From Candidatus Saccharimonadia bacterium (GTDB taxonomy: Bacteria; Patescibacteriota; Saccharimonadia; UBA4664), in contig JBGTMQ010000021.1 of assembly GCA_041743505.1 (NCBI GenBank), positions 521 to 64,520 on the forward strand: a DNA stretch of 64,000 nucleotides. The letters are read 5' to 3'. Positions 22,710 to 45,145 of this stretch are shown here, one piece after another. The position numbers were made by a program, and so were the translations under genes. Below the pieces are notes generated by a model. That model was not told where the DNA came from. It searched no databases and worked only from the letters and a program-made list of their open reading frames with translations. How positions within the stretch are numbered: position 1 is the first letter of the stretch; every line of letters starts with the position of its first letter.

Positions 22710-23201
22710 CTAGATTATGTCAAATGTTTGGACGGGGCCGTGCCAAACTTCAGTATTTAATGCGACTTCCTTGAACTGTCCTTGGGTAATCTTGTTGATC
22801 ACTTTCCGCCAAAAGCGTGTTGCCAGATCGTTTGCTTCCATTTGCGCAACCTCCCATCTGCCGGGAAATTTTGCGAATGTTAATGCTGCCGCCCGCTCCC
22901 CCACTCCGTTTTGTCGAAACGTTGGAGCAACATAAAATTCGGCGATGGAGTGAGCCTGAATTTGAGTAATAGTAAGGGTGTTTACCAGAACGAAGCCACC
23001 TATTTCGTGGTTAACCATTATGAAGAATGCCGCCCGTTCGGAGTCGGTAAAATAATCTGGTAAATATTTATAGGTTTTGATTTCATTCGGGCTATTACCG
23101 CTATAAGGGAGAAGCTCGCGCTGGTACTCGTAGAGAAGTTGAGACAGAATGTCACTGTCCTTTTCGTCTATGGTCTTAAGGCTGACGGTTGCGGTTTGCA
23201 T
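22710..23201 (-). CDS. GNAT-family N-acetyltransferase
   Basis: ...FRQNGVGERAAALTFAKF... acetyl-CoA-binding motif (Q/RxxGxG/A). Confidence 0.6.
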   Translation of the reverse strand: MQTATVSLKTIDEKDSDILSQLLYEYQRELLPYSGNSPNEIKTYKYLPDYFTDSERAAFFIMVNHEIGGFVLVNTLTITQIQAHSIAEFYVAPTFRQNGVGERAAALTFAKFPGRWEVAQMEANDLATRFWRKVINKITQGQFKEVALNTEVWHGPVQTFDII

Positions 23202-23318
23202 AAGAGTCTCCTGCTCTGACCAACTGAGCTACGAGCGCAATCCCTAATCAGTTAGGTTGGCGATTTGATCCGCGAAATCGTCGAGTTTATGTTGGACGAC
23301 GTCCCATATTATCTCAAA

Positions 23319-23609
23319 CTATAGTACTGAAACCAGCTCTGGCGTTATATATGGCTCAAAATGTCGATTTAACTTTGTTGCGACGTCTACTCGTCTGCTC
23401 AGCCGTTCCTCAAGTTCATACTGTAAACCCCCAAGGTCGAGGTATGTCCTGCCTACGCCTAGCTCCACTAATAAGTCCAGGTCGCTGTCCGGCGTAGCCT
23501 CTCCACGCGCATAGCTACCAAAGACATGGGCCTTTGTGACCCCATATTTGTGAAGGATTTCTTTAAGCTCAGTTAAAGGTATTGGTAAGTCTAGATCTTG
23601 TACGGTCAT
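23319..23609 (-). CDS. minimal nucleotidyltransferase (MNT/MntA-like, Pol-beta superfamily)
   Basis: GSYARGEATPDSDLDLLV motif (GSx9-13DxD). Confidence 0.7.
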   Translation of the reverse strand: MTVQDLDLPIPLTELKEILHKYGVTKAHVFGSYARGEATPDSDLDLLVELGVGRTYLDLGGLQYELEERLSRRVDVATKLNRHFEPYITPELVSVL

Positions 23610-25261: not shown

Positions 25262-25562
25262 AATTCTTCATCCTGTCTAGTAAAAAGGATACGCTGAAGA
25301 TACGTTCAATAAAAATGCTGATGCTTTGGGACCAGAAGGGGCTCGAACTTTTGCAACAGATAACAAAAAAGCCTCTCGCATTTGAGAGGCTAAGGTACGA
25401 ACCAAATTGTATCTGGATAAATACTTTTGGAGGGCCGTAAGGACCACGCTTGGAACCTTTTTCTTGAAAGTCTGGTGATCCTGAGCAAGAAATTAGATTC
25501 GCTCGGATTCGTGTACATCGATGGCCGCGTATCTATCACCAAGCCAGACGCGGAGGTGAGCC

Positions 25563-26045
25563 GTGTTTAGCTTTTTGCATCGACATAAGCCGTCCCCTGC
25601 CGGTCTACTAACTTCGCAGCTATTTAATGACGCCACGTTCTATCCAGCCTTTGTCCACGACTTAAATCGATGCCGTATTGAGGCGATCATTGAGAGCCCG
25701 TTTATAACGACAAAACGCGCTGCTTTTCTTGCTCCTGTATTAATGAGTCTTAAGCGGCGCGGCGTTAGAGTAATTATTAACACCCGTGATCCCAATGAGC
25801 ACGAGACGCACATGCGTATTCAATCCCGAATGGCGGTCGAGGAGTTCCAGCAGGCAGGCGTTCAGGTTCTGTATACGGACAAACACCACAGGAAGCTGGC
25901 TATTCTGGATGGCGAAATTTTATGGGAGGGCAGCCTTAATATTCTCTCCCAAAATGACAGCTGCGAAGTTATGAGGAGGGTTGAGTCTGCAGGGCTAGCT
26001 ATGCAGATGCTACAGTTCGTGAAACTAGATAAATTCTTAAGATGA
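25563..26045 (+). CDS. phospholipase-D-like (HKD) nuclease, Nuc-like
   Basis: Single HKD motif: HRKLAILDGEILWEGSLNILSQND matches HxK(x)4D(x)6GSxN. GTG start. Confidence 0.65.
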   Translation: MFSFLHRHKPSPAGLLTSQLFNDATFYPAFVHDLNRCRIEAIIESPFITTKRAAFLAPVLMSLKRRGVRVIINTRDPNEHETHMRIQSRMAVEEFQQAGVQVLYTDKHHRKLAILDGEILWEGSLNILSQNDSCEVMRRVESAGLAMQMLQFVKLDKFLR

Positions 26046-26545: not shown

Positions 26546-27013
26546 TCATGTCTCTGATTTGATAAGGTTTGTTACAGCTGTGTAGATATCCTTATACGGT
26601 GCATAGAAGGTGTTTGAAGAAAACTTGTGGGCACGCTGCTCACTTTTCTCTTCATCGTAAACATCCACATCTTCATTAAAGTATGTCTCATAGAAGTCTC
26701 GCTTATCCGTGAATATGACTTTGGGTATATCCTCATCAATGCGATCGCTAAACTGGTCGGCGGTCAAATCGATGACATGGCCTCTGTATTCTACCCATGC
26801 GTGTGAGCTATCCAGCCCTGGGTGGTCAGAACTACTCGATGCACATATATATCTCATGCCTGTGTATCCAGAATCCAGCATCAATCTGATTAGAATGTCA
26901 CAGGTTATACTACAGCAACCAGCAGGAAACCGCCCTTGATAAACAGGCATATCCGCAGGCAGGTCTTCGAGTGCTGCTCGTAGTTTAAGGGCCATGTCGT
27001 GAAGTTCTTTCAT
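26546..27013 (-). CDS. transglutaminase-like cysteine peptidase superfamily protein
   Basis: GCCSITCD...HAWVEY...IDLTADQ matches the Cys / HAWVEVY / D-T core of transglutaminase-like domains. Confidence 0.45.
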   Translation of the reverse strand: MKELHDMALKLRAALEDLPADMPVYQGRFPAGCCSITCDILIRLMLDSGYTGMRYICASSSSDHPGLDSSHAWVEYRGHVIDLTADQFSDRIDEDIPKVIFTDKRDFYETYFNEDVDVYDEEKSEQRAHKFSSNTFYAPYKDIYTAVTNLIKSET

Positions 27014-27025
27014 CGGCCAGGTCTA

Positions 27026-27442
27026 TCAAAGCCCACAATTGTCACTAGTCCACTTTTTGACGCTTGACTCTGCCGATATGCCGCTTAGACTTGCGGACAA
27101 GGCTTGCGAAGGGTCTTTTTCGATTTTCTCGAAAACGGATTTTAAGATTTTTACATCAGGCTCAATATCGCTAGGCGCTACTTTATCCAGGCGAGCAAAT
27201 GCCTCGGCAAAGTCCCTTGCACTGCTTGAGCGGCGAGAGAAGACAGCAACACTGTATGCGTCTCCTTTTGCATTGGCCAGTTTTGTGTTCTCGGTTTTGT
27301 AAACTTCGCAGTAAGCTGTTGCTGATCGTTGTGGCCGCATAAAAAGTATAGTGACAACCGCAAGCGTGATCATCAGGATAACAAGAATAATTCGATTCAT
27401 AGTACTCAGGCCGGAAAGCTTAGTCTTTATTTTTTGCTGCAT
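27026..27442 (-). CDS. membrane-anchored hypothetical protein
   Basis: N-terminal signal anchor RIILVILMITLAVVTILF. Confidence 0.45.
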   Translation of the reverse strand: MQQKIKTKLSGLSTMNRIILVILMITLAVVTILFMRPQRSATAYCEVYKTENTKLANAKGDAYSVAVFSRRSSSARDFAEAFARLDKVAPSDIEPDVKILKSVFEKIEKDPSQALSASLSGISAESSVKKWTSDNCGL

Positions 27443-27566: not shown

Positions 27567-27908
27567 GTGAGAAAGTACGATGCAGCTAAATTTATGTCGG
27601 TATTCCTCATTATTGGGGTGCCATTTGTTTTAATACACCCGGCATTTGCCGCCGACGGCAGCGTTGGTCAAGTTGAGACCTTTATCCGTAGCATCATTAA
27701 GGTAGTAGCCGGTTTGGCTGGGCTTGTCGCAACCGGCTTTTTTGTTGTTGGCGGTTTCGGGTATATCACGAGTTCGGGCAACCCGGAACATCTCGACCGT
27801 TCAAAGCGCACTCTCTTATTCGCGGCCTTAGGTCTGGCAATTACAATTGGTGCTTTCGTTTTGAGTAACATCATCACGAGCTTAGCAACGAGCGCCTTCG
27901 GGAGTTAG
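27567..27908 (+). CDS. TrbC/VirB2-like conjugative pilin
   Basis: Signal peptide ending AFA-AD, two hydrophobic helices, and motif ...GGFGYITSSGNPEHLDRSKR. GTG start with GAGGAGG 5 nt upstream; ORF from 27504. Confidence 0.5.
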   Translation: MRKYDAAKFMSVFLIIGVPFVLIHPAFAADGSVGQVETFIRSIIKVVAGLAGLVATGFFVVGGFGYITSSGNPEHLDRSKRTLLFAALGLAITIGAFVLSNIITSLATSAFGS

Positions 27909-27909
27909 T

Positions 27910-29334
27910 ATGAGTTTTCTTGCGGCCGCTCCTTTTATGCTGCTGGCCGATGCGACTGCCGCATCCAATGTGATGCGGTCGTTTGTGACGCCGATGGTAA
28001 GTACTCTCATAGCGATTGCTTCAATTGCTGTGGTGTTCTTCTTGATAAACGGTGGCATACAATTTATGACAAGCTCGGGTAATCCTGAGCGGTTGGAGCA
28101 TGCCAAAAAGGTAATTCGAAACGCCCTTATCGGCCTAGTAATGGTTATTGCCGCGGGTACTTTAACGGCGATATTGAGTCATGCCTACACTAGCGCAGGG
28201 CCAGCTGCTACCGAGAAGCTTCCGCAGATGGTGACCATTCAGCCGGGACCTGCATCGAATGGGCTGGTGGAGGCCATGATTAATACGGTCATGGGCTTTC
28301 TCAAGGCTGTGATTGAGTCTGCGGCCAAGCCATTTCTGGATGCACTACATTTCTTTACTAGCTCAACACCCTCCATGGCCGAAAACTCTAGCGTCTTTAA
28401 TCTTTGGCTGACAGTGGTTGGCATTGCTGATGCGCTTTTTGTCTTGGCAGTAGCCTTGCTAGGCTTCCATGTGATGAGCTTTGCGACGTTTGGCCTTGAA
28501 GAGATCGAATTTAAGCATTTGCTGCCTAAGATTGCTCTAGTGTTCCTCCTTGTGAACACATCGATTTTTGCCATTGATGCGGTTATTGCAGTATCCAATG
28601 CAATGATTAGCGCCGTAAATGCCGGGGCTTCATCAAAGTCGGTTTGGGAGTCGCTGAGTGCAGTCGTCAGCCAACCGGAGACCATTGGACTGGCTGGACT
28701 GCTGGTCATGGTGGCCTTCGTGGTCTTGTCGGTCATACTCATTGTTTATTATGTGTTGCGCTTGGTGACGCTATACATCGGGGCGGCACTGTCCCCTATC
28801 GTTTTTCTGCTTTGGCTTCTGCCTGGGTTTAAGGATTTTGCCGAAACAACCGCTAGGACGTATTTCAGTACAATTTTTGTGCTTTTCATTCACGTTGTCA
28901 TCCTGCAGCTCGCGGCTTCCCTTGTTGGAGGCGTGGCGCTGGCGACTCCCGACCAGGCGCTTGATCCGCTTATGTCGATGATCGTAGGTATTGCCACGAT
29001 ACTTGCGCTCCTGAAGACACAAAGCGTTCTTATGCAGCTATCGTTTGTAAGTTTGGGGCCGAAGACAGCGGCCATGCTTGGCGGGCAGCTAAGCAACGCC
29101 ATTAGTTACTATTCCGGAAAATCGGGCAGGTCATCTGTCGATAGGGGTGCCGATGACGGACGGTACAGCGAGAAGTCCAAGCGCGGATCAACATCGACGG
29201 CGAACTACTCAAGTACGACTCGAACGGCGCCAGCTGCAGCGACACCACCACAGCGGGCCAAGCCAGATGGGGCGGCCTCGGGCTCACCGCATAAAACCAG
29301 AGTGGCACCTAGATCAAAGAAAGGAGGTACATAA
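27910..29334 (+). CDS. pilin-like N-terminal domain fused to VirB6/TrbL-like polytopic membrane protein
   Basis: Residues 1-95 are paralogous to the upstream pilin (FLINGGIQFMTSSGNPERLEHAKK), followed by 6 or more TM segments and an S/T/P-rich C-terminal tail. Confidence 0.5.
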   Translation: MSFLAAAPFMLLADATAASNVMRSFVTPMVSTLIAIASIAVVFFLINGGIQFMTSSGNPERLEHAKKVIRNALIGLVMVIAAGTLTAILSHAYTSAGPAATEKLPQMVTIQPGPASNGLVEAMINTVMGFLKAVIESAAKPFLDALHFFTSSTPSMAENSSVFNLWLTVVGIADALFVLAVALLGFHVMSFATFGLEEIEFKHLLPKIALVFLLVNTSIFAIDAVIAVSNAMISAVNAGASSKSVWESLSAVVSQPETIGLAGLLVMVAFVVLSVILIVYYVLRLVTLYIGAALSPIVFLLWLLPGFKDFAETTARTYFSTIFVLFIHVVILQLAASLVGGVALATPDQALDPLMSMIVGIATILALLKTQSVLMQLSFVSLGPKTAAMLGGQLSNAISYYSGKSGRSSVDRGADDGRYSEKSKRGSTSTANYSSTTRTAPAAATPPQRAKPDGAASGSPHKTRVAPRSKKGGT

Positions 29335-29846
29335 TGAAAACGGCAATTGTTCCGGCACAGATCACGACTGTTGAGGATAAAGTCGCGGGGAACCTAGGCC
29401 TTTCTCAGCTACTGCTGTTGGCTGCGCCGGTGTTCATCGGGGGTGCTGTCTATATTATCCTTCCGCCAAGCCTCGGCGCGGCACTCTATAAACTCGTCGT
29501 CGTGACGATCATTAGCTTAGTCTTTGGCTTATTGGCTATTAGGATTAAGGGCCGCATCCTGCTGTTTTGGGCGATTACGATTGCGCGATACAACTTACGG
29601 CCGCGGCATTATGTATTCGACAAGAATGACATGCATCTGCGGTACAAGAGCGAGAAAGGCGTCGAGGCGCATACCACGGCAGATCAAGCGCAGAATCCCA
29701 AGGCGGCGAACCATAAGGTAGCCCCAGGTTTGAGTACCACAGACACCGTGATGCTTGAGGGAATTATTGCCAATCCTGAGGCAAAATTGCATTTTATAAC
29801 CGACCGGAAAGGGGGCTTGAGTGTCCGCATTACAGAAGTCAAATAA
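29334..29846 (+). CDS. PrgI/VirB3-like small membrane protein
   Basis: 170 aa with two TM helices, immediately upstream of VirB4. Start overlaps the previous stop (TAATG). Confidence 0.45.
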   Translation: MKTAIVPAQITTVEDKVAGNLGLSQLLLLAAPVFIGGAVYIILPPSLGAALYKLVVVTIISLVFGLLAIRIKGRILLFWAITIARYNLRPRHYVFDKNDMHLRYKSEKGVEAHTTADQAQNPKAANHKVAPGLSTTDTVMLEGIIANPEAKLHFITDRKGGLSVRITEVK

Positions 29847-30435
29847 GAAACAGTCCTCACGTCAGCAGATCAATATCAAGGGCGTGCAAGACGGAGTCTT
29901 GATGCTGCCAGGCGATCAGTACCGGGTTATTCTCGAAGCTTCGGCCATAAACTTTGAACTTAAGAGTGACGATGAGCAGGATGCGATTATTGAGGCTTAC
30001 CAAAGCTTTCTCAACTCCCTGTCATGTCCGGTGCAGATTCTGGCACGGATTCGCGAGATGGATATGCAGCAATATCTCGATAATTTCCGGCAGGCTTCAG
30101 CTCAGGAGAAGGAGCCGATCTATCGTGATCAGATCAACAACTATGCTGAATTCGTTCAGAGCCTCGTTAACACGAATAAGATTCTTTCCCGCCGCTTCTA
30201 CGTGGTTATTCCGCACACCGACTATTACGGCGACGGTTTTGAGGCCGTTCACGAGCAGCTGCTACTGAACAGCGATATTGTTGGCAAAGGCCTGAGCCGG
30301 CTTGGCATTCAGACGCGCCAGCTTAGCAGCCTGGAGGTTCTCGATCTCTTTTACACCTTTTACAATCCTCAGCAGGCCAAGCGGCAGCCCATCACTGAGC
30401 AGACTCTGCGGCTACTTAAAGATTCTTACCTATAG
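29821..30435 (+). CDS. VirB4/TraE-family ATPase, N-terminal domain fragment (ends at in-frame TAG)
   Basis: Same frame as the downstream ATPase ORF. Sequence resembles the N-terminus of Gram-positive VirB4 homologues. Confidence 0.55.
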   Translation: MSALQKSNKKQSSRQQINIKGVQDGVLMLPGDQYRVILEASAINFELKSDDEQDAIIEAYQSFLNSLSCPVQILARIREMDMQQYLDNFRQASAQEKEPIYRDQINNYAEFVQSLVNTNKILSRRFYVVIPHTDYYGDGFEAVHEQLLLNSDIVGKGLSRLGIQTRQLSSLEVLDLFYTFYNPQQAKRQPITEQTLRLLKDSYL

Positions 30436-30441
30436 GAGCAT

Positions 30442-32178
30442 TTGATGGAATTCTGGGAACAAATTACTGCATGGAAGAAGCGCCGCGATGAGCGGCCAAA
30501 AGAATTGGCTCTTAGTTTTGGTGAGCAGGACCCGATGGATATTATTTCGTACGCCGGAATGGAGGAGCAGGTAGACCATCTGTGCATCGACGGCCAGTTT
30601 ATGCGGACGCTGTATATCTCCGGCTATCCGTTTGTGGCAGCCTCGGGCTGGCTCAATAGTCTGGTAAATTTTAATCACAATGCGGACATTTCGTACCACC
30701 TGACAGCGGTTAACGCGACGCAATCCCTGCCAAAACTAAACCGCAAAATCACCGAGCTAGAATCAACAAAAAGAGCGATGGTTCGCAACGGCAAGATTGT
30801 CGGCCCCGAGGTTACAGACCCGCTAGAGTCTGCAACTGAACTGCGCAATAAGATTTTGCGAGGGCAGGAAAAGCTATTCCAGGTTTCGATTTATGTAGCT
30901 CTGACCTCCGAAACGCTGGCTGAGCTGAACAGCGTTACGAAGATGCTAGAAACCGAGTTGTCGTCGCGGTTGTTTTACACCAAAGTTGCACGATATCAGC
31001 AAGTCGAGGCATTACAGTCGGTGCTGCCGCGAAGCGAGAATATCCTGGACCAAAAGCGGAACCTAGACAGCTCGTCGGCGGCTCTGACATTTCCACTGAT
31101 GTCGTCCGAGCTGGTGCAGGAATCTGGTATCCTCTACGGGGTCAACAAGTCCAACAACTCTCTGGTGATCCTCGATCGCTTTAGCCTAAATAACGCCAAT
31201 AGCATCGTGTTTGCTCAGTCGGGCAGCGGTAAGAGCTACGCGACGAAAGTCGAGATTCTGAGGCAGTTAATGCAAGGCACAAGGGTCATCGTGATCGATC
31301 CGGAGCGAGAATATAAACTGCTGGCCGAATCCGTGAATGGTTCGTACATCAAGCTTTCAGCTAACTCCAGAGAAAAGATTAACCCGTTCGACTTGGCAAC
31401 AACGGCCCGCTCGAAAGAGCATCTGTCCGAGCATGTGCAGGATTTGACGGAAGTCATTTCGCTCATGGCAGATGGGCTTGATTCCAGCGAGGCGGCGGCG
31501 GTCGATAAGGCGATTCTTAAAATTTATCACGAGGCTGGCGACGAGATGCCGCTGCTTCGTGACCTCTACGCAGAGCTGCGAAAGCTCGGTCACTTAACAC
31601 TGTGCGAGCGGCTTGAGAAGTATATCAGCGGCTCATTGGCCGGCGTCTTTAACGAGCAGACTAATATTAAGCTCGACAACCGGCTGGTGGTGTTCGATAT
31701 CAAGGACATGCCCGAATCGCTGCGCCAGATTATGATGATGATTATTTCCAGCTTCGTGCAGAATGAGGTAAAGGTACACCCGCAGAAGCGCATGCTAATT
31801 ATTGATGAGGGCTGGCTGCTTCTGGAACACGAGCAAAGCGCCCGATTTGTAACGGGCCTGGTGCGACGTGCTCGAAAATATTACCTGGGCGTTTCGATCA
31901 TCTCGCAGCAGGCTAACGACTTTTTGCGAAGTGACTACGGCCGGGCAATAGCCTCGCAAAGCAGTTTGCGAATTCTAATGCGCCAGGATACGACGACCAT
32001 CAAAAACGTGGCAATGGAGTTCAATTTGAGCGAGTGGGAGGAGAGCTTCTTGCTCACTTGCGAGAGGGGCGACGCACTGATTATCGCAGACCAGAACCAT
32101 GTTGCTGTTAAAGTTGTGGCCTCTAGTAAAGAGCACCCTCTCATTACTACAAACCCGACAGAGCTATACCAGCCATGA
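30442..32178 (+). CDS. VirB4/TrbE/TraE-family conjugation ATPase, C-terminal ATPase domain
   Basis: Walker A AQSGSGKS, Walker B MLIIDEGW. ATG 30445 preceded by AGGAG. Confidence 0.8.
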   Translation: MMEFWEQITAWKKRRDERPKELALSFGEQDPMDIISYAGMEEQVDHLCIDGQFMRTLYISGYPFVAASGWLNSLVNFNHNADISYHLTAVNATQSLPKLNRKITELESTKRAMVRNGKIVGPEVTDPLESATELRNKILRGQEKLFQVSIYVALTSETLAELNSVTKMLETELSSRLFYTKVARYQQVEALQSVLPRSENILDQKRNLDSSSAALTFPLMSSELVQESGILYGVNKSNNSLVILDRFSLNNANSIVFAQSGSGKSYATKVEILRQLMQGTRVIVIDPEREYKLLAESVNGSYIKLSANSREKINPFDLATTARSKEHLSEHVQDLTEVISLMADGLDSSEAAAVDKAILKIYHEAGDEMPLLRDLYAELRKLGHLTLCERLEKYISGSLAGVFNEQTNIKLDNRLVVFDIKDMPESLRQIMMMIISSFVQNEVKVHPQKRMLIIDEGWLLLEHEQSARFVTGLVRRARKYYLGVSIISQQANDFLRSDYGRAIASQSSLRILMRQDTTTIKNVAMEFNLSEWEESFLLTCERGDALIIADQNHVAVKVVASSKEHPLITTNPTELYQP

Positions 32179-32672
32179 AGCCGCTACTGATGCTGGGCGC
32201 AGTGTCATTCAAAAAAGAGATTGCGATCGTGCTTGTTTCATTGGGTGTGATCGTGTCTCTGCCGGTTGTCGCGCTCGCGTCCGTTGTGGATGTGGGGCAA
32301 ATGAAGGACCCGGAGGTCAAGCTCTATACCGGGCCAGTCTCGACAACGAACACCTACGTTTTCGGTCATTGCACATACTGGGTTGCAATACGGCGCGAAC
32401 AAACAGGCACTCCCATTCCGAACAATTGGGGCCACGCGAAAACATGGGCTAGTAACGCGATTAGCCAAGGCTATAAGGTCGACCATGTCCCGGTTGTGGG
32501 GTCAATCATGCAAACGACGGCAGGGCTATTCGGTCATGTGGCATATGTTGAGAGCGTAAACACAGCCGATCGCAGCTGGACTATTTCTGAAATGAACTTT
32601 GTAGGGTGGGATGTGATGAGCAACCGCACCTTGCCCGCGAAAGCAGCGCTTGATTATAACTTTATTCACTAG
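32175..32672 (+). CDS. CHAP-domain peptidoglycan hydrolase (VirB1-like function)
   Basis: Signal/TM N-terminus. Cys...His CHAP motifs (GHCTYWV...GHVAYVE). ATGA overlap with VirB4 stop. Confidence 0.6.
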   Translation: MKPLLMLGAVSFKKEIAIVLVSLGVIVSLPVVALASVVDVGQMKDPEVKLYTGPVSTTNTYVFGHCTYWVAIRREQTGTPIPNNWGHAKTWASNAISQGYKVDHVPVVGSIMQTTAGLFGHVAYVESVNTADRSWTISEMNFVGWDVMSNRTLPAKAALDYNFIH

Positions 32673-32680
32673 GGGCTGAG

Positions 32681-35287
32681 ATGGAGACTATCACCGAGTA
32701 TTCGCTAGACATCCTATCCTCACTGCTGCCTGTGGTAGTAGTCTTCCTCGTGGTGATTCTGCTCATAGGGCTCGCCGTAGCGGTATTATTCCGCATCTTG
32801 ACCCTCCGTCGTCTATTCCGGCAAAAGTGGGTATTTTTAGAGCTTACGCCCCCAGCACAGACTGATAAATCACCGGAGGCTACTCAGCAATTATTCTCGG
32901 TTTTGCATGGATTGGACTCGGTACGCTCGCATAAAGATACCCTCCTACGGCGAAAGGAAGTATTCTCGCTTGAGGTTGTCTCGACCCGAGAGCAAGGCAT
33001 CCGCTACATAATCCGAGTTTCGGAGCATGAGGCGCCAATATTCGAGCAGACAATTGCCTCATATCTGCCGGAAGTCCGCCACAGGCGTATTAAGGATTTT
33101 CTGCCGGAGTCGTTTAGAAGCGGCGCCGTTCGTGTGCTCGATTTTAAACAGATGGGTCACTTCGCCTATCCATTACAAAAACAATGGTCGCTCAATGAGC
33201 ACGACCCTATCGCCTACCTAACCGGTACTATGACCAAGCTCGCAGCTAACGAAATGGTCGTGTTCCAGATTGTCGCTTCACCTACCAGAGTCCGCGAGGC
33301 AGAAGCAATTGCGGGGCGCATTCTCAACAATGCCGAATTGCTGCACAGGCTTGGTAAGCGGGGGCTGCCCGGCATTGGCGGCCTGTTTGCGGCTATCAAC
33401 TTAGTACTGTTTGGCACCCTGGAATCCATTAGTGAGCTTTCCCGTAGTTCACCGACACATGCGGGTCAGACCGGTGGCCGCGATGTCCAGCGTGAGCGTG
33501 ATGTGGCGATGAGAATCAAGCCGGCACGTACGCTGAGCGCTTTTGAGCAGCAGTTGGCCGAATCGGTGCATGACAAGGTGAGTCAGCCTCTTTTTCGGAC
33601 CAATATACGCGCATTGGTAGTAACGGCGAGCCCCCAAAACCGGGCGCAGAGACTTAAGGGCATACAGGCCTCGCTCATGTCCTTGAGCCTGCCCAAGTAC
33701 CAGTCGCTTAAGGCGCGTTATGACTTTCCATATTTCATCAGGGGTAGATTGAACACCTTTGCATTCCTCAGCCGCCTGCCGTCCCCGCTGCCGCTCAAAT
33801 CGGTTTTGCTTTCTGCGTCTGAAGTTGCCAATATATATCACTTCCCTTTTAGCCTAACGGCTAAGACCGAGAACGTAGTGCGGTCACTTAGCCGGACGCT
33901 TCCGGCACCTATTTCACTCAAGGGCAAGGCTGAGTTCGACGTCGTCTTGGGTCGGAATCATCATCACGGCACTACTACCGATATCGGCCTGACTGCCGCC
34001 GAACGCGAGCGCCATGTTTACGTGCTCGGAGGCACCGGCAACGGTAAGACTACGATGCTCGAGTATTCAATTGTTCAGGACATTCAGAGCGGCAAAGGCG
34101 TTGCCGTTGTCGATCCACACGGTGATCTAGCGGAGAAACTTTTGCGCTTTATCCCCGAGAACCGCATCAAGGACGTCATTTACTTTAATCCGGCGGATTT
34201 AAAGTATCCGGTTGGGCTGAACTTGCTTGAGCTACCGGAAGGTTTGTCCGGCGACGAGCTTATCGACGCCAAAGACTTTATAACTGAGGCAATTATTTCA
34301 ATAATGCGAAAGATTTTCTCGGATGACGATACGGGCGGACACCGCATTGAGTATGTTTTGCGAAATACGGTGCAAACGGCACTAACAGTGAAAGATGCGA
34401 CCCTGTTCACCGTTTTCGACTTGCTGACCGATTCGAAGTACCGAAAGAAGATTGTTAAAACACTCGAAGATGAGAAATTAAAGAACTTCTGGAAGGAGGA
34501 AGTCGGCAAAGCCGGCGATTTCCAGCGTGTTAAGATGTCGGCTGGCGTGACGGCCAAGATTGGGCGGTTCCAGTTCTCGGCCTCCGCAGAGCGCATCTTG
34601 AGCCAGCCAAAGTCTACAATTAATTTCGAAGAAATACTCGACGGCAAAATTCTGATCTGCAATTTCGCCAAGGGGTTGATCGGCGAAGACACCTCCGAGC
34701 TGTTTGGTATTAGCACGCTAGCAAAGCTGCAGCTGGCGGCATACCGTAGAGTGAAGCAGAAGCGAGCAGACCGGAAACCGTTCTATCTCTACGTGGACGA
34801 GTTTCAAAACTTTGCCACGATGTCTTTTGTGCAGATGCTGTCTGAGGCACGAAAATATAGAGTCTTCTTGACGATGGCCGAGCAGTCCACATCCCAGCAG
34901 GACGACCAGCGCATGGTTAATACGATCTTAGCTAATGTTGGGACAGTTGTTTGTTTTCGGTCGGGGAGCCCGGCCGACGAGCAGCTTATCCTTCCCCTCT
35001 TTTCGCCCTATATCCAAGAGGGCGAGATCGCCAACCTTGCTACCTATAATTTCTACGCGCGGATATCGGCCGTGTTGTCTCAAGAGCCTGTTTCGGGCGA
35101 GACGCTATTGCTGGAGAACTCCGGCAGCGAAATGATCGCACAATCGGCCATTAGCGCGTCGCGCGCAAATTATGCCCGGCAGCACAAACCAACTGTTAAT
35201 GTGACGGACGCTAGGCCCGCCACGACAAAGCGAAAACCAAAAAAGCCCATTGCCGCGAGCCAGACCACGGCTCTACCAGGAGACTAG
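32681..35287 (+). CDS. type IV coupling protein (VirD4/TraG/TcpA-like ATPase)
   Basis: N-terminal TM segments. Walker A VLGGTGNGKTT, Walker B YLYVDEFQNF. 868 aa. Confidence 0.7.
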   Translation: METITEYSLDILSSLLPVVVVFLVVILLIGLAVAVLFRILTLRRLFRQKWVFLELTPPAQTDKSPEATQQLFSVLHGLDSVRSHKDTLLRRKEVFSLEVVSTREQGIRYIIRVSEHEAPIFEQTIASYLPEVRHRRIKDFLPESFRSGAVRVLDFKQMGHFAYPLQKQWSLNEHDPIAYLTGTMTKLAANEMVVFQIVASPTRVREAEAIAGRILNNAELLHRLGKRGLPGIGGLFAAINLVLFGTLESISELSRSSPTHAGQTGGRDVQRERDVAMRIKPARTLSAFEQQLAESVHDKVSQPLFRTNIRALVVTASPQNRAQRLKGIQASLMSLSLPKYQSLKARYDFPYFIRGRLNTFAFLSRLPSPLPLKSVLLSASEVANIYHFPFSLTAKTENVVRSLSRTLPAPISLKGKAEFDVVLGRNHHHGTTTDIGLTAAERERHVYVLGGTGNGKTTMLEYSIVQDIQSGKGVAVVDPHGDLAEKLLRFIPENRIKDVIYFNPADLKYPVGLNLLELPEGLSGDELIDAKDFITEAIISIMRKIFSDDDTGGHRIEYVLRNTVQTALTVKDATLFTVFDLLTDSKYRKKIVKTLEDEKLKNFWKEEVGKAGDFQRVKMSAGVTAKIGRFQFSASAERILSQPKSTINFEEILDGKILICNFAKGLIGEDTSELFGISTLAKLQLAAYRRVKQKRADRKPFYLYVDEFQNFATMSFVQMLSEARKYRVFLTMAEQSTSQQDDQRMVNTILANVGTVVCFRSGSPADEQLILPLFSPYIQEGEIANLATYNFYARISAVLSQEPVSGETLLLENSGSEMIAQSAISASRANYARQHKPTVNVTDARPATTKRKPKKPIAASQTTALPGD

Positions 35288-35372: not shown

Positions 35373-36731
35373 TTACTGACCCGCCTGTATCGATCCACGA
35401 GCAAATGCCTCAAGGATCCTTTTGCTCGGGAAATCGGAGAGCGATATGAGGCGGTTAGCTAAAGCAACAGGGATCAATGCGTTATCGTACATTGAACATC
35501 GCAGCTCACCAAGAACGGAAAGAACGCTCGTAAGATTGTGGAAGTCTGCATACGATGGGTTCGGTGAGTATTTACTCATCGGAACAGTCGCCACATAAAC
35601 ATTACCGTCTTTAGCTTTGTATATAAACTTTCCTCCCCAGTAAGTGTTGCTACCGTAAGCATCGGGGCCCTTAGGATCACCCGGCACAATGTATTTATAG
35701 ATATATTCGTTAGACAGAAGCAAGACCGAGCCTGGTCGCATTTGACCCTCGATTAGCATAGCGTGTTCAACGAATGGCCCACTCTTTTCTAGGCCCGCCG
35801 CGTTGAGAAGAGGAGGCTCACTCGGCTGGTTCTCTTGGACTCCTAAGAATTCAGCCAACTCCCGCATGGGCTTCGACAATGGCGCCGTCTGACCAAAGAA
35901 GGCCAATGGGCCGTCTTTGATAAATAATACCTCCCGCAGAAGGCTAGGCTTAAGCTCCCACAATGTCTTGATGAGGTGCACTAGCACAATCTGCTCTAGC
36001 ATTGTCATTACATAGCTGGTGATACCACCCGCTCCCTGCTCTTCATCTATTCGTTCATGCAACCGCAGGGCGTCCACAAGATAGATCGGCGCTCCGCAAG
36101 TTGTACAGGCTTGTTCGTCGGGCGAGTCATTTGAGAGCACAATATATGTCCGCGTACAGCCGACATTCGGACAGGACGGTATATCCCAGGTTTTGGCGCC
36201 GTCTGGTTTCCAGCCTCTAAATAAAATCCATCTTAATGCTTCAGATAAGGGCTTCTCTTCATCTTGGGCCTTTGTGAAGAAATCATGCAGGCTTGAGCGT
36301 ACGGAGTCGATGAGTGATTGACTAGCACGGGAAATGTTTTTAGTCGGGAGTACAAGCGTATAGCGCTGGATATTTTTAAGCTTTGCTAAATCCTCAGGGG
36401 CAATGAACGGCTGATTATCGAGTTCACGTAATTCCTCAAGCTTAAAAAGCAAGGGACCGAAAGCAAAAAAGGTTATTACGGATGATGGAAATTCGTTCCG
36501 GACAGCGGCCTCCCTATAGCTTCCATCAACAGCAACAACTGCTTTGATTTTCTGATCCTCGACCTCTGGTACATCCTGTATAAGAGCTTCTAGGACGGAT
36601 TTTTCTGCTGCTTTTGGCACCGTGCAGCCGTCCAGAAATGCTTGAACGGTTGGGTTATTAATAATATTGCTATGGGATATTTTGCTCGCCCTCTCCATGG
36701 GCTTGCGCCCTTTGGCGCTACCATATGCCAT
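35373..36731 (-). CDS. NurA-like nuclease with inserted C4 zinc ribbon
   Basis: NurA motif KAVVAVDGSYRE. CPNVGC...CTTCG ribbon. ATG overlaps the HerA stop (TAATG). Confidence 0.55.
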   Translation of the reverse strand: MAYGSAKGRKPMERASKISHSNIINNPTVQAFLDGCTVPKAAEKSVLEALIQDVPEVEDQKIKAVVAVDGSYREAAVRNEFPSSVITFFAFGPLLFKLEELRELDNQPFIAPEDLAKLKNIQRYTLVLPTKNISRASQSLIDSVRSSLHDFFTKAQDEEKPLSEALRWILFRGWKPDGAKTWDIPSCPNVGCTRTYIVLSNDSPDEQACTTCGAPIYLVDALRLHERIDEEQGAGGITSYVMTMLEQIVLVHLIKTLWELKPSLLREVLFIKDGPLAFFGQTAPLSKPMRELAEFLGVQENQPSEPPLLNAAGLEKSGPFVEHAMLIEGQMRPGSVLLLSNEYIYKYIVPGDPKGPDAYGSNTYWGGKFIYKAKDGNVYVATVPMSKYSPNPSYADFHNLTSVLSVLGELRCSMYDNALIPVALANRLISLSDFPSKRILEAFARGSIQAGQ

Positions 36732-38698
36732 TAAACGGCCTCGGCTTGTGCTTCACTTTTTGGAGCTTCGGCCACAATAACCTTAAATTGATCCACTTGT
36801 ATCGGGACGATGAAGGTATTCGAGTCAGTTTTAAGCCGGATAAAGCCTCGATCGGTTGTTCGGCGGAGGCTGTCGGTGAAGTCTTCAAAGTCGTAATACT
36901 TATTGAGCTCACGAAGTTCATCTTGGTTGTTGAGATGAGAAACGAACCAGTTCTGAGTGTTTTTGAGAATACTTCCGGAAATAGAGCTGACTTCCTGGGT
37001 CGCATAGCACAGGCCAAGTCGTAGCTTCTGGCCTTCTTTCGCTAGGCGGTTATAGATATTGGTGAGATCTTTTTCTTCTTTACGCGGGAAAAGGTTGTGC
37101 GCTTCTTCAAAATACATTTGTATGAAGTTTGCGGGTTCGTTATCGATGAACCTCTTCATGGCTTCGCCGAAGATCTTTTTACATACACGGTCGGAGTATA
37201 CCCGTTGTATGTGCGGATCACCCTGTGAAAGATCTATAAGAACGATTTTGCCGGATCGCAAAAGTTCCACTATCTCGTCCTCAAAGGATTCTCCAATGGT
37301 GGCCGTGTGGAGGTCACGCCCTTTAATAAATTTTCTATACCCGCTTTCGCTTGAGTTTGCACCCGGCCTGGATTTTCGAGTAAGAAACCGCATCAAGGTT
37401 TGAAGATCTTCTTCGGCCCATTCGCGTCCGCCCTTCGACTTCTTCAGTGCCTGGAATGGACCGCCCGAGTCAGCGTAATTGTCCCATGCGGCGCTAAACC
37501 AAGCGGCTGCATCGTCTAGGCTTAAGCCCGACTTGGGCTCGACTCCTTTCAGGCCGGGAATCTCTGACTCTCTGATCTCTTTGGCGGAATCGAAATACAC
37601 TTTTTCATCGGTCTGAGCAAAGCCCGCCTTGAATAGACACGCCTTGTATGCCGCAATTTTCCGTTTATATTTAATCGTCGCCCCAACGTCTTCGTTGTCC
37701 GGCTCTTCCCAGTCTATGTTCAAGAAAGCCTTAACGTAATCGGCGGTGTCGTCAGCAAGTAGAGTGGAGAGCAAACCGAACCCATCTGTTACCGACTTAT
37801 AAAAGTTCAGTTTCATTACCTTGAAGCCTGTTTTTTCCATAACACTGTAGCGGGTTACTTCGTTTGGGTACTGCTGGAAAATCGCCGTGCCGTCGTCCTG
37901 CTGGTTGGTATTTGCGTACTCGCCATTTATGTCGAAAACAATTTGGCCTACGGGCTTCACGGGGGCGCCATTCATCGGAGCGCCCGAATTTGATATGCCC
38001 ACAGTCGCCTGGATAATCTTTTTTACGGAGTTGGATTTTCCAGTTCGGGTCATTCCAAATAGTGCAGTTCTTTTACCGAGGAAATCGATTGGAGTGACAA
38101 ATACTGGCACATCTTCGCCGGAAAGGTGTCGCTGGCTTGAACTATAGCGAATTTTGCCAATCCGCTCGTCGCCTTTACCGCCTGGTATTCCCTGCTCTCT
38201 GAAGTTGACGATGTATTCGAGCAACTTACCCGTTGGCTTGATCACCTCATAGCTATTAGGGGCGTAAAAGTTATCCAAATCTCCAGCGAATTTTACATCA
38301 CCAGCGTCATTGCGGTAAAAAGAGCCGATAACCCGACATTCCAACCCCGAATACTGAAACTCTGCGCGGGTGTAGGAATCGAGCTGAGAGCCGGCGGATT
38401 GTTCCTTGTAATGGTCAACCATTGCGGCAACAACGTCATCGTCCGTAGGGAGACGCGTAGGACGAAGGACACGAACTAAGATCGCTTCATCTATCCCGTC
38501 TTCAGCGGTGTACCGGCAGAGTAGAAAAGCTCCCGCAGGGACACCGCTAACTTTTCGTTTCCAGCTATCGTTTGACAGGAGTTTCAGTGTGTTGAAGTCG
38601 AGATAGAATGGGCGCCCGACAAATGCATCTTGTTTTTTGGCCTCAGCGAATAAGTCCACCGTGGCTAGTTGTTTGAGTTCTTCGATTACAGAAGCCAC
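36731..38698 (-). CDS. HerA/FtsK-like ATPase (DUF87-type)
   Basis: Walker A LFGMTRTGKSN, Walker B KIVLIDLSQGD, C-terminal QEVSSISGSILKNTQNWFVSHL typical of HerA. 655 aa. Confidence 0.65.
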   Translation of the reverse strand: MASVIEELKQLATVDLFAEAKKQDAFVGRPFYLDFNTLKLLSNDSWKRKVSGVPAGAFLLCRYTAEDGIDEAILVRVLRPTRLPTDDDVVAAMVDHYKEQSAGSQLDSYTRAEFQYSGLECRVIGSFYRNDAGDVKFAGDLDNFYAPNSYEVIKPTGKLLEYIVNFREQGIPGGKGDERIGKIRYSSSQRHLSGEDVPVFVTPIDFLGKRTALFGMTRTGKSNSVKKIIQATVGISNSGAPMNGAPVKPVGQIVFDINGEYANTNQQDDGTAIFQQYPNEVTRYSVMEKTGFKVMKLNFYKSVTDGFGLLSTLLADDTADYVKAFLNIDWEEPDNEDVGATIKYKRKIAAYKACLFKAGFAQTDEKVYFDSAKEIRESEIPGLKGVEPKSGLSLDDAAAWFSAAWDNYADSGGPFQALKKSKGGREWAEEDLQTLMRFLTRKSRPGANSSESGYRKFIKGRDLHTATIGESFEDEIVELLRSGKIVLIDLSQGDPHIQRVYSDRVCKKIFGEAMKRFIDNEPANFIQMYFEEAHNLFPRKEEKDLTNIYNRLAKEGQKLRLGLCYATQEVSSISGSILKNTQNWFVSHLNNQDELRELNKYYDFEDFTDSLRRTTDRGFIRLKTDSNTFIVPIQVDQFKVIVAEAPKSEAQAEAV

Positions 38699-38713
38699 AC
38701 TGCGGCCCTTTGT

Positions 38714-39934
38714 TTAGTTTCTGAGGCTGGGCTTGTCCCAATCGAGGGTAATCGCTTCCGGAATGCTCACTTTGTGTGGGCTCATTAACAGAAGCCGATC
38801 AGTCTTTGTGGCTCGTCCAATATTATTCTTCCAAATGCGGCTAACTTTGACGCCAAGCGGCAACTCATCGGCAATAATACTATGAAGATACCACCCTTGA
38901 GGCTCGGCCGCTAGTTCCCAAACGGCTTTGGCAAGGTTAATATGTTCATCGTTGCGTCGAACATCTCCAATAACCAAGCAGACATAGCCATCATCAGCCA
39001 CAACTTCGCGCATTTGTAGCAAGAATGCGCTCATGAATTCGATGTAACGAGCCATGGAGCTACTTGCCATAAGGGTATCATCAACGGCCTTTGCCTCTTG
39101 GCCCAGAAGCCACAGCCGTACCCAGTTATATTTTCCATATTTTATAACCTCTAGGTACGGGGGGGAGGTTAATACCAATTTAACTTTCTCTTTGCGCAGC
39201 CAGGCGGGCGCAATGGCCGTGGCGTCTTGCTGCCAGCTCTTACCTCCGTGAATGGGCCGCTCAGGTAAATCAAATCTCTGGATTTTCAATCGCAGCATTT
39301 CAAAAACATTGACTTCAGGTTGAGTTAATCCGTGCTCCGATATATAGCGCCTAACATACGCTGGCGACATCGCGAACGTATTCGGCATACTTATGGAAAA
39401 GCCTCGCGCCTCACCGCTTTTAGTGTGGTTAGCATGCATCGTACCAAGTGCAGAGGCGAGTATGAAATTATCTACAAAGCTATTTACATTGAGCTCCGAT
39501 TTCATGAAGACGAGTTGGCGTAGGGTGTCGGCGCTATAAAGCATTGCGATATCCGGTGGCGTGTTAGAAATATCGACAGTAGCGTCTTTAAGTATGCTGA
39601 TTAAATTATCTAGCCGTTGGTTTAGTTGTTTTTGTGATGGAATATCAAGCTTTGCTTTCGTCAGTACTGTCGCCATCGGGTTTAGGTCACTCGCATAAGC
39701 TTTTCGGTCTAACATTATTGCTTCTAGCGCCGATGTCCCACGTCCCGAAAACGGGTCGTAAATTGTTTCGCCCTGGGATGTTAGCCAAGCAATAAGGTAA
39801 TGCGCTAACTGCGGTGGGAACATGGCGAAATAACTGCACATACTGTGTAATGGGTGGCCCCAGCGCCTTGGTACCACCCGCCAATTCATCGGAATGGCGT
39901 CTAGCGATACTTTTGACTCCAAAATTGTGCTCAT
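38714..39934 (-). CDS. DNA methyltransferase (N6-adenine/N4-cytosine type, SPPY motif)
   Basis: AdoMet motif I DPFSGRGTS and catalytic motif IV TSPPY (LVLTSPPYLEV) with an intervening target-recognition region. Confidence 0.7.
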   Translation of the reverse strand: MSTILESKVSLDAIPMNWRVVPRRWGHPLHSMCSYFAMFPPQLAHYLIAWLTSQGETIYDPFSGRGTSALEAIMLDRKAYASDLNPMATVLTKAKLDIPSQKQLNQRLDNLISILKDATVDISNTPPDIAMLYSADTLRQLVFMKSELNVNSFVDNFILASALGTMHANHTKSGEARGFSISMPNTFAMSPAYVRRYISEHGLTQPEVNVFEMLRLKIQRFDLPERPIHGGKSWQQDATAIAPAWLRKEKVKLVLTSPPYLEVIKYGKYNWVRLWLLGQEAKAVDDTLMASSSMARYIEFMSAFLLQMREVVADDGYVCLVIGDVRRNDEHINLAKAVWELAAEPQGWYLHSIIADELPLGVKVSRIWKNNIGRATKTDRLLLMSPHKVSIPEAITLDWDKPSLRN

Positions 39935-39970: not shown

Positions 39971-40465
39971 TTACTCAATTATTGAGATCTCATACTTTAT
40001 GAGTGACCGAGGGTATGGCATTTGAGAGGTAATTCTATGTGTCATTTTCTCGTCTACGACAGCGATAATGTACATAGTGCTGCAAGCTGGCGGGAAAGCG
40101 GCGGCGGCATCAGGCGTTACCATAACTACTCTAGCCTCAGGTTCGTCAAGGGGATTCTCCGTGAATTGAAGCGTCTGCATATAAGCGATTTGTCGCGAGA
40201 ATTCGATAAGCTTCTCAGTGTCGCTATCGTTAGTTGCAGCGCGTTTTACAAGAATTTGATGCATCATTCGCCGCCATCGCTTCTCGACTAGCGCCAATAG
40301 CTCACCAGGCTTTCCGGCTACGACATATTCGGCCCCACCAAGCCGGTGGCGCATATATAGACGCTGGGCTATATCGCGAGCAATATTTTGTATGCCGAAT
40401 ATTTTGGGCCGTTCAAAGTAATTGCCAGGTTCATACTCCCCCTCCAGCGACTGGATTACTGTCAT
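39971..40465 (-). CDS. hypothetical protein, first gene of the MTase-HerA-NurA operon
   Basis: 164 aa, co-directional, 37-nt gap to the MTase. Confidence 0.45.
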   Translation of the reverse strand: MTVIQSLEGEYEPGNYFERPKIFGIQNIARDIAQRLYMRHRLGGAEYVVAGKPGELLALVEKRWRRMMHQILVKRAATNDSDTEKLIEFSRQIAYMQTLQFTENPLDEPEARVVMVTPDAAAAFPPACSTMYIIAVVDEKMTHRITSQMPYPRSLIKYEISIIE

Positions 40466-40480
40466 TATCTACTATTACTC

Positions 40481-40559
40481 TTACTAATAGTTCTCATCAA
40501 GAAAAGCGTAACATAATTATCCAACTATTAGTATCACTAAGTGTTACTAAGACTAATAA
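40481..40559. promoter_or_regulatory. operator-like direct repeats (T/C)TACTAA in divergent promoter region
   Basis: ttactaa at 40481-40487, cactaa at 40535-40540, ttactaa at 40544-40550, actaataa at 40552-40559, between the defence operon start and the XRE gene. Confidence 0.35.
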
Positions 40560-40577
40560 TTCTTTACGCTTGAGTTC

Positions 40578-40808: not shown

Positions 40809-41026
40809 TCGGTGGCAAAACTAGGGTACTAAAAAACGGGCTTATGCCCGTTTTCGTTGATAGTTTTTCGCACCTAAAATTATACCTGCAAGTACTCAAG
40901 TTAGGTTCCCCGCTCACAACTATCTATCATTGTTATACCGCTTGTGCATCTAGCATACAACCCGGTAGATTTAGATGTTGGTATTTCAGGCGACGACAGG
41001 CACTAGCGCCATAGTCGGCCCGCAGG

Positions 41027-42265: not shown

Positions 42266-42312
42266 TTGTAATATGTAACATCAAAACAGCATAGTGCTGC
42301 TTATCCTGATCC

Positions 42313-43839: not shown

Positions 43840-43852
43840 GAGAAGGCCCCGA

Positions 43853-45127: not shown

Positions 45128-45145
45128 GCATAAAACGGGCCGCAC

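Follow-up and report, generated by a model that had tools for sequence, protein, structure and literature searches.

The 64,000-nt stretch analysed here (the window), from contig JBGTMQ010000021.1 of a Candidatus Saccharimonadia bacterium, carries a type IV secretion system (T4SS) operon of seven co-directional genes and, further along, a gene of the Replic_Relax family (PF13814) and a serine recombinase gene that runs into a tRNA-Lys gene (Table 1). The original prediction, made from the letters of the sequence, had recognized the operon and had proposed the Replic_Relax gene and the recombinase ORF (open reading frame; 53969-55711) as its possible partners in a conjugative element. Our searches supported this link, as both genes and the operon lie between the putative attL and attR sites of this recombinase; the prediction had not noticed that VirB4 is split, that the recombinase meets a tRNA, that its tail lies at the far end, or where exactly the element begins and ends.

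Two scans underlie our comparisons. A VirB4-based genome scan, with one genome per species, supplied the best 80 of 252 relatives, to which all synteny counts of the operon refer, and a metagenome scan with two recombinases (those of the window and of locus L058) gave 80 loci, 68 of them with enough downstream sequence. L-numbers denote loci of the genome scan (including L001, L051, L053 and L058) or of the metagenome scan (L082-L161), and Pfam and NCBIfam profile scores are in bits against the family cutoff. An alternative genetic code was not supported, as long ORFs read through under table 11. The identical sequence is contained in SRR28170471, a data set of the source sample.

Table 1. Features of the window, in order of position. 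A slash marks the crossover point; aa, amino acids; TM, transmembrane; T4CP, type IV coupling protein.
Feature	Position	Strand	Evidence or remark
Intrinsic terminator, host-side (B) arm	25370-25391	-	8-bp stem with 5 GC pairs and T-run (terminator scan); fold z-score -4.0
attL (B/P')	25388-25467	+	Predicted crossover 25427/25428: ...aatacttt/TGGAGGGCCGTAAGGACCACGCTTGGAACC
C-terminal recombinase "tail", 47 codons	25427-25570	+	MEGRKDHAWNLFLESLVILSKKLDSLGFVYIDGRVSITKPDAEVSRV and stop; apparently split from the gene body by integration
PLD-like (Nuc/DpdK-like) small protein	25563-26045	+	PLDc_2 40.9; first gene after attP
Two small genes (26546-27013 and 27026-27442)	26546-27442	-	Second: N-terminal TM segment, conserved beside T4SS in 9 loci
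VirB2/TrbC-like pilin	27567-27908	+	TrbC/VirB2 38.8 (cutoff 27.9); T4SS_pilin 34.7, above cutoff
474-aa polytopic membrane protein with N-terminal T4SS pilin domain	27910-29334	+	T4SS_pilin 32.4, above cutoff
PrgI/VirB3-like protein	29334-29846	+	PrgI 33.2 (cutoff 27)
TrsD-like protein (separately encoded VirB4 N-domain)	29821-30435	+	NCBIfam CD1110 positions 11-172, TrsD; Pfam TraC-like
VirB4 ATPase	30445-32178	+	NCBIfam VirB4-like CD1110 family 344.9 (cutoff 325)
CHAP peptidoglycan hydrolase (VirB1 analogue)	32175-32672	+	CHAP 58.3; N-terminal TM segment
VirD4-like coupling protein (T4CP), 868 aa	32681-35287	+	TM segment, DUF8128 domain, P-loop ATPase
Cargo: NurA-like nuclease, HerA-like ATPase, type II-like N6/N4 DNA methyltransferase	35373-39934	-	Defence-type cassette
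Further cargo	39971-51027		164-aa protein (kept in sister element), methyltransferase, 2 NUDIX, NTP-transferase, glycosyltransferase, UDP-galactopyranose mutase, kinase, transaldolase, glyoxalase, SnoaL
DUF3768 protein	51222-51536	+	Beside relaxase candidate; same position in sister element
Replic_Relax (PF13814) protein, MOBC-type relaxase candidate	51555-52340	-	Pfam 46.1 (cutoff 25.3)
Hairpin with 13-nt arms	52411-52440		Upstream of the relaxase-candidate gene; conserved in sister element
NhaA Na+/H+ antiporter (cargo)	52441-53658	-	Absent at this place in sister element and L058
Palindrome of about 40 bp	53752-53789		Relaxase-recombinase divergent region; conserved in L166 and L058; candidate oriT or operator
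53-aa basic ORF	53812-53973	+	Overlaps recombinase start (ATGA); candidate directionality factor or regulator
Serine recombinase body, 557 codons	53969-55640	+	Pfam Resolvase 29.3 (cutoff 23.3)
attR (P/B')	55601-55680	+	Predicted crossover 55640/55641: ...aaatgattcaa/TGGTGGGCCATCAGGGAC
tRNA-Lys(CUU), intact, CCA encoded	55641-55717	-	Predicted integration target, on host side

Recombinase, tRNA-Lys and the att junctions

The recombinase ORF (ATG at 53969) has no stop codon of its own and runs 71 nt into the antisense strand of tRNA-Lys, to position 55711, thereby gaining 23 foreign residues in a tRNA-fused form of 580 aa. The resolvase catalytic domain with its catalytic serine, as expected of a large serine recombinase, was found both by the Pfam match and by the motif AAIRVSSVKQG (catalytic-type IRVSSVKQ), which is invariant between the window and L058, and a zinc-ribbon-type motif (CPxCx17YYPAYHC) is visible in the sequence; the Pfam families Recombinase and Zn_ribbon_recom gave no match to this protein and that to XisF was weak (21 bits). 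At the opposite end of the segment, 47 codons encode a C-terminal recombinase tail, and a hidden Markov model of this tail had its single match in the window there. The frame of the tail opens with TGGAGGGCCGTAAGGAC, which resembles a tRNA 3' end. Homologous tails (…WNLFLESL…LGFVYIDG…) stand upstream of PLD genes in L001, L083, L099 and others, and in L051, L108 and L146 the tail is continuous with the recombinase C-terminus, which is the unintegrated, attP-type order recombinase-tail-PLD.

Joining position 55640 to 25428 gives an in-frame recombinase of 604 residues, with the predicted attP junction …AATGATTCAA/TGGAGGGCCGTAAGG… (also written AATGATTCAA/TGGAGGGCCGTAAGGACC), and joining 25427 to 55641 places the tRNA-Lys 36 nt upstream of an intrinsic terminator on the same strand, with the predicted attB junction …AAATACTTT/TGGTGGGCCATCAGG… (also written GGATAAATACTTT/TGGTGGGCCATCAGGGAC). 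The window has this terminator to the left of the attL junction, at a distance of 36 nt; once the empty site is reconstructed, it falls just downstream of the tRNA. An inversion of 25428-55640 would restore neither attP nor the neighbourhood of tRNA and terminator, while excision would restore both. Because of the in-frame fusion, the restored tRNA and terminator, the single tail and the failure of an inversion to restore either junction, 25428-55640 appears to be one integrated element of 30,213 bp, with the T4SS inside it and 2 kb from its left end; its GC content is 0.50, vs. 0.54 in the outer flanks. On this reconstruction the insertion is shown to separate tRNA-Lys(CUU) from its terminator, precisely at the CCA end, and the inserting enzyme is shown as a putative large serine recombinase whose own gene spans attP, the body being left at the right end and the tail at the left. 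No tRNA-length direct repeat was found at the ends of the element, where likeness is limited to TGG and an imperfect half-site resemblance; a short core of this kind, free of long direct repeats, is what a large serine recombinase leads one to expect. When the P' arm was scored against 98 tRNA 3' ends, the adjacent tRNA-Lys was the joint-best match (9/13).

A direct repeat of tRNA sequence (23201-23231 with 55680-55710) was considered as a boundary and rejected, as excision there would restore neither the tRNA nor attP. The left copy belongs to a tRNA-Lys(CUU)-like gene truncated to its 5' half (23201-23238, minus strand; 30/31 identical to 55680-55710), 2.2 kb outside the element, with the acceptor strand GCGCUCG, as in the neighbouring tRNA-Arg, and cut in the anticodon loop exactly at the start of a GNAT gene.

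The metagenomic loci place the recombinase family at tRNA genes in general. An opposite-strand tRNA abuts or overlaps the recombinase 3' end in 65 of the 68 loci with enough downstream sequence, with 17 anticodon species represented, and the L058 recombinase (65% identical to that of the window), which directly follows T4SS, T4CP and Replic_Relax genes, likewise reads into a tRNA-Gln. One identical P arm is joined to tRNA-Lys(ttt) in L141, to tRNA-Glu(ttc) in L142 and to tRNA-Glu(ctc) in L144, and in L139 to a P' arm that is not a tRNA (an unintegrated junction); another is joined to tRNA-Lys in L107 and to tRNA-Ile in L109. Sequences with identical arms always diverge just before TGG, the antisense of the tRNA CCA end. 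In addition, L051 and L053, from Saccharibacteria bacterium 49-20 and 47-87, share a 15.5-kb stretch (T4SS included) with 99.9% identity and are unrelated immediately after ...CACCA (locus position 15554). Since the same arms occur with different tRNAs and L051 and L053 differ at precisely this point, the family is, as far as such comparisons reach, demonstrably active in nature, with its crossover at the CCA end of tRNA genes.

Some further observations concern these junctions. L051 has a 5'-truncated recombinase fragment fused to the tail, as well as accessory genes, and in L053 the tail is joined to genes for HisRS, trigger factor, ClpP and RpoB. Despite the CCA crossover, P' arms copy particular tRNA 3' ends (12/13 for tRNA-Leu(tag), 11/13 for tRNA-Glu(ctc), 10/13 for tRNA-Glu(ttc)); the arms concerned are those of the window attL (25428-25457), L001 (41-70), L146 (about 1595-1625) and L139 (about 2555-2590), and the tail of the recombinase has its variable start encoded there too.

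The T4SS operon and its conservation

The original prediction of co-directional T4SS genes was borne out by seven ORFs with profile matches, and the overlaps it had read between them (TAATG at 29334 and ATGA at 32175) are implied by the ORF coordinates. Its fusion of a pilin with VirB6/TrbL holds for the pilin part of the 474-aa protein; the TrbL/VirB6 match (19.3 bits) is under the cutoff of 25.9, for which reason we regard the VirB6-like assignment as weak, and the position and hydrophobic character of the protein fit VirB6. The VirB4 ATPase was identified correctly, except that VirB4 is encoded by two genes and not by one. The TrsD-like ORF ends in TAG, followed by AGGAG and the ATG at 30445; the ATPase part has a length of 574-609 aa in all 120 best homologues; and the two parts are in different reading frames at other loci. 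A pseudogene with an in-frame TAG was ruled out on these grounds (a ribosome-binding site and ATG after the stop, uniform homologues of ~580 aa, differing frames), and the split is thus the native two-gene arrangement published for Patescibacteria. The coupling protein matched TrwB_AAD_bind (30.4 bits), T4SS-DNA_transf (30.0) and TraG-D_C (27.4), each above its cutoff, and TrwB was the best match by sequence in the PDB, the Walker A region included; because the Pfam scores are low we take it for a divergent family member. No operon gene had a profile match to VirB8 and, as originally stated, none matched a relaxase profile.

The VirB4 ATPase has 5914 database homologues, the best 120 of which are 79-96% identical to it and come from Saccharibacteria or Saccharimonadales where named; identity to Saccharibacteria genomes is 75-96%. 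The gene order is conserved across the 80 loci, with the pilin found in 66, the pilin-VirB6 protein in 68, PrgI in 74, TrsD in 79 and VirB4 in all 80, followed in the same order by CHAP (60 loci) and the T4CP (70 loci, downstream of the operon). In contrast, the flanks of these loci (10 kb on either side) have almost nothing in common with the window, and for TrxR, a housekeeping gene of the flank, no relative exceeds 68% identity. In the nearest relative, L001, the VirB4 protein is 96% identical to that of the window and the operon DNA only about 81%, so that the high protein identity is no sign of recent transfer; the comparison points to very strong purifying selection on the operon. The original prediction had distinguished a mobile block from a core one that is present and syntenic in all relatives: the profile support for the T4SS holds, and the block is present and syntenic in all 80 related loci, which goes half way towards "core, not mobile". 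Given this synteny, its occurrence in ~80% of Patescibacteria genomes and its essentiality in one species (see below), the operon behaves as a conserved, strongly selected gene set and not as a sporadic island.

As to what is already known, the operon is, by gene content and order, the canonical Saccharibacteria T4SS of the published, MPF-FATA-derived Patescibacteria clade, in agreement with the label "Patescibacteria type" given to it originally. It is the same T4SS as that of Quinonero-Coronel et al. 2025 (PMC12102498), and as an operon it is therefore not new; as cited in PMC12102498 and PMC12857230, this system was also described by Wang et al. 2023. Shared are VirB2-like pilins, a putative VirB6-like protein, PrgI/VirB3, the split into TrsD and VirB4 and a downstream cell-wall hydrolase, and outer-membrane core genes are lacking in the window operon as in the published clade (PMC12102498). 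VirB4, and with it the T4SS, occurs in 2,417 of 3,035 Patescibacteria genomes (about 80%), is essential in Southlakia epibionticum, and was concluded to be chromosomal, mostly relaxase-less and probably repurposed, relaxases being found in only 103 Patescibacteria genomes (PMC12102498, PMC12857230). There are differences too: coupling proteins are mostly far from virB4 in the published survey, whereas the T4CP is in the operon in the window and in 70 of the 80 loci, and while PMC12102498 reports a chromosomal, exapted system, the window operon lies between putative serine-recombinase att sites with a MOBC-type gene. Integrases were not analysed in PMC12102498, where the word "integrase" does not occur.

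The operon also shares a separate TrsD, a PrgI/TrsC-like VirB3 and a CHAP-type hydrolase with the MPF-FATA systems of Firmicutes, in particular the pGO1/pSK41 subclass (TrsC, TrsD, TrsE, TrsG), to which the NCBIfam matches to TrsD and CD1110/CD1115 tie it. Unlike these Gram-positive systems, which are without them, it has VirB2-like pilins, and in contrast to MPF-FATA no PrgB-type adhesin was recognized in the window system. Some Saccharibacteria metagenome-assembled genomes (MAGs) have two or three T4SS copies on separate contigs (L023/L032/L038, L028/L079 and L026/L042), which could be paralogous elements or mixed-strain bins.

Relaxase candidate, related elements and cargo

PF13814, the family of the relaxase candidate, is the MobC of CONJscan (PMC5357655). 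An AlphaFold model of the window protein (pLDDT 90) has a MarR-like winged helix-turn-helix in its N-terminal half and a C-terminal half with a possible likeness to restriction endonucleases, and the best full-length folds in the PDB were those of FokI (E-value 1.5e-4, TM-score 0.31-0.34) and BstEII. Such a likeness would fit the restriction-endonuclease relationship of MOBC relaxases, although as the TM-scores are low it is only supportive. The PF13814 gene is always downstream of the T4CP in T4SS loci and in some 50 metagenomic loci the recombinase is its neighbour, in many cases together with a paralogue of the T4CP. Near it in the window are two candidate sites, the hairpin and the palindrome of about 40 bp, between which NhaA appears to have been inserted. 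The hairpin and the small basic ORF (53-57 aa) are common to the window and L166, and the palindrome to the window, L166 and L058; the 53-aa ORF had no Pfam match, and a 57-aa gene occupies its position in the sister element.

This sister element is contained in MAG CAZLPY01 on two contigs. The first, L001, starts 40 nt left of an attL-type junction and continues with tail, PLD, T4SS, T4CP and a homologue of 39971-40465; the second, L166, has a recombinase (70% identical to that of the window), the small ORF, a Replic_Relax gene (84%), DUF3768 and other cargo, and ends 7 nt after a TGGTGC junction. A 138-nt overlap (96%) connects the inner ends of the contigs, and the two att junctions form the outer ones. 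Visual reading of the contig ends again gives an in-frame recombinase fusion, and the P' arm resembles tRNA-Leu(tag) (12/13) and not tRNA-Lys. CAZLPY01 thus appears to carry the same backbone with different cargo: the NurA-HerA-methylase cassette is missing, the T4CP being followed directly by the homologue of 39971-40465, as are NhaA and the sugar genes, and Dcm methylase and DUF6339 genes are present.

The PLD-like gene, which is in an operon with the recombinase tail, is near 35 of the 80 T4SS loci, and about 20 of them have the operon no more than 6.5 kb from a tail/PLD end, in one of two orientations. The gene also forms the left end of small elements without a T4SS, L083 (about 9.7 kb) and L099 (about 6.7 kb). 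The commonest metagenomic module consists of Replic_Relax, a T4CP paralogue (38-49% identical to the operon T4CP) and the recombinase at its tRNA; in L058, L104 and L128 the T4SS adjoins the recombinase-tRNA module. Loci L082-L161 include a large family of small elements with Replic_Relax, a VirD4-like paralogue and the serine recombinase at a tRNA, which have no VirB4 within 10 kb; they have the appearance of mobilizable elements, which would rely on a resident T4SS.

The same three-gene module, comprising a serine integrase, a PF13814/MobC relaxase and a VirD4 coupling protein, is known from IME_Class_8 of streptococci (Coluzzi et al. 2017, PMC5357655), a class of IMEs (integrative mobilizable elements), but the present elements are from another phylum with only distantly related proteins, target the CCA end of many tRNAs and have a recombinase gene that spans attP. 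As the window module is linked to a complete T4SS, it resembles an integrative and conjugative element (ICE) and not an IME. The integrases of archaeal fuselloviruses (SSV1 type) also have attP within the integrase gene and target tRNA genes, so that integration partitions the gene; they are tyrosine recombinases whose exchange takes place inside the tRNA and produces a long direct repeat, whereas the enzyme of the window is a putative serine recombinase with a CCA-end crossover that splits off only the last 47 codons and leaves no long repeat. The literature searched contained no account of such elements, or of this recombinase, for Patescibacteria.

The cargo includes a patch of GC 0.59 (43000-46500) within surroundings of GC ~0.47. 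It encodes an NTP-transferase, a GT28-type glycosyltransferase and UDP-galactopyranose mutase and has the look of a sugar-modification module acquired on its own. Immediately to the left of the element, 23319-23609 (minus strand) encodes an MNT-type nucleotidyltransferase that matches the PADLOC candidate defence family PDC-S09, and the low-GC stretch to which it belongs (17-25.4 kb, GC 0.48) may be another island.

Interpretation of the element

A relaxase-family gene, a T4CP, a VirB4 with its mating-pair formation (MPF) genes, an integrase and attL and attR sites that enclose the conjugation genes are all found in the sequence of 25428-55640, and we give a probability of roughly 0.6 to the reading that this segment is a 30.2-kb ICE or ICE-derived unit holding the T4SS. 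A number of points weigh against this. The operon is conserved like a core gene set, with synteny in 80/80 loci, and 96% protein vs. ~81% DNA identity suggests long purifying selection and not recent transfer; in published work the T4SS is essential for epibiotic growth and relaxases are rare (PMC12102498, PMC12857230). The P' match to tRNA-Lys is modest (9/13) and tied with tRNA-Cys, and the tRNA-Lys 5' half 2.2 kb outside the element is unaccounted for by a model of CCA-end integration. No attB or circular junction was found for the window element, the closest relatives of the TrxR flank being 64-68% identical and not syntenic, and a sequence-cluster look-up of the full-length (excised-form) recombinase gave singletons only. 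The relaxase assignment draws on a family profile and a low-TM fold match, the oriT is a candidate (palindrome and hairpin), and genes of housekeeping appearance (transaldolase, NhaA, NUDIX) are present in the segment. As regards the presence/absence polymorphism among relatives asked after originally, the backbone recurs in the sister MAG with other cargo and with a P' arm that is Leu-like, and L051 and L053 differ at the crossover; no empty tRNA-Lys site was found for this genome.

Several of these points are what would be expected if the T4SS were a vertically inherited core machine for interaction with the host, essential for epibiotic life through effector delivery, adhesion pili or uptake of host material, which is the current proposal for Patescibacteria, and if the surrounding recombinase, tail and relaxase-like genes were relics of an ancient, now immobile element without a part in its function. 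We consider this account unlikely, though it is the strongest of the rival ones. The seven-gene synteny in 80/80 loci, the very high protein conservation with saturated synonymous change and the published distribution (VirB4 in 2,417/3,035 genomes, relaxases in 103, essentiality in S. epibionticum) all speak for it, and relic states are known, L051 and L083 keeping just a 5'-truncated recombinase fragment; however, in the window the recombinase body, the tail and the relaxase-like gene are all intact frames and the ends of the element fuse in frame, the recombinase family is demonstrably active in nature (the same arm at different tRNAs, and the L051/L053 polymorphism), and the T4CP is kept in the operon in 70/80 loci. 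It is, moreover, only partly exclusive of an ICE, being compatible with a dual role. The original prediction had posed a conjugative element and a host-interaction T4SS as alternatives, an opposition we would drop, as the two readings are not mutually exclusive.

That the segment combines two unrelated elements seems to us improbable. The tail-PLD end would then stem from an old T4SS-linked element and the Replic_Relax-NhaA-recombinase portion at tRNA-Lys from a small mobilizable one that lost its own left end, which would put the T4SS outside the currently active unit. Small elements of the latter kind exist (L083 and L099), most recombinase loci have no VirB4 within 10 kb, and tail/PLD ends occur beside T4SS operons with no recombinase nearby; but the 64 kb hold only one tail and one tail-less recombinase, which fuse in frame, a terminator suited to the tRNA is present in the B arm, and the two contigs of the sister MAG span the same backbone between both att ends. 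Still less credible, in our judgement, is a machine for DNA import in which the pilins and the VirB4 and HerA/FtsK-like ATPases would work in the manner of the archaeal Ced system: the matches that suggest it (VirB4 to CedB, 44.6 bits; T4CP to CedD, 47.5 bits) fall far short of the 700 and 600 bits set as cutoffs for the two families, the match to the conjugative VirB4 family being above its cutoff, and natural competence of Saccharibacteria depends on type IV pili and ComEC (PMC12857230). As loss of ComEC abolished competence and left viability unaffected (reviewed in PMC12857230), the essential role of the T4SS is not to be explained through ComEC.

Returning to the ICE or ICE-derived unit, we envisage that the recombinase, possibly with the 53-aa ORF product as directionality factor, would excise the element as a circle and thereby restore the full-length recombinase-PLD operon. 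The PF13814/MOBC-type protein would nick oriT, for which the palindrome and hairpin beside its gene are the candidates, and the VirD4-like ATPase would pass the DNA to a channel of TrsD and VirB4, PrgI/VirB3, the VirB6-like protein and VirB2-like pilins, with the CHAP hydrolase opening the wall; in the recipient the element would re-integrate at a tRNA 3' end. The same T4SS would serve the many small elements of the family that have a relaxase, a T4CP and a recombinase and no T4SS. Present-day excision of the window copy, nicking of oriT by the PF13814 protein and DNA transport by the T4SS are inferred. The most economical view is of an ICE or ICE-derived unit with mainly vertical inheritance that is able to change its tRNA site. 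Because the operon is so strongly conserved, it probably has, or has acquired, a host-interaction role in Saccharibacteria as well, and the T4SS may combine DNA transfer with the role that the literature reports.

What is new here is the att-bounded ICE context with an attP-spanning serine recombinase directed at tRNA CCA ends; the T4SS itself was known. Patescibacteria (the candidate phyla radiation, CPR) make up a large share of bacterial diversity, and their T4SS is the first reported as essential for the survival of its owner. With operon and T4CP placed between att sites beside a MOBC-type candidate, conjugation in this group becomes directly testable, and a recombinase specific for tRNA CCA ends would be a ready-made integration tool for genetically intractable organisms. 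The context also accounts for a class of small relaxase, T4CP and recombinase elements that would rely on the conserved T4SS. More tentatively, and with the odds in our estimate somewhat against it, we speculate that the Saccharibacteria T4SS was ancestrally the mating-pore module of a family of ICEs and mobilizable elements at tRNA CCA ends, characterized by an attP-spanning recombinase, a MOBC-type relaxase and a VirD4-like T4CP. If this is true, there would be genuine conjugative DNA transfer among ultrasmall epibionts or between epibionts and their hosts, and the view of the Patescibacteria T4SS as exapted from conjugation would need revision.

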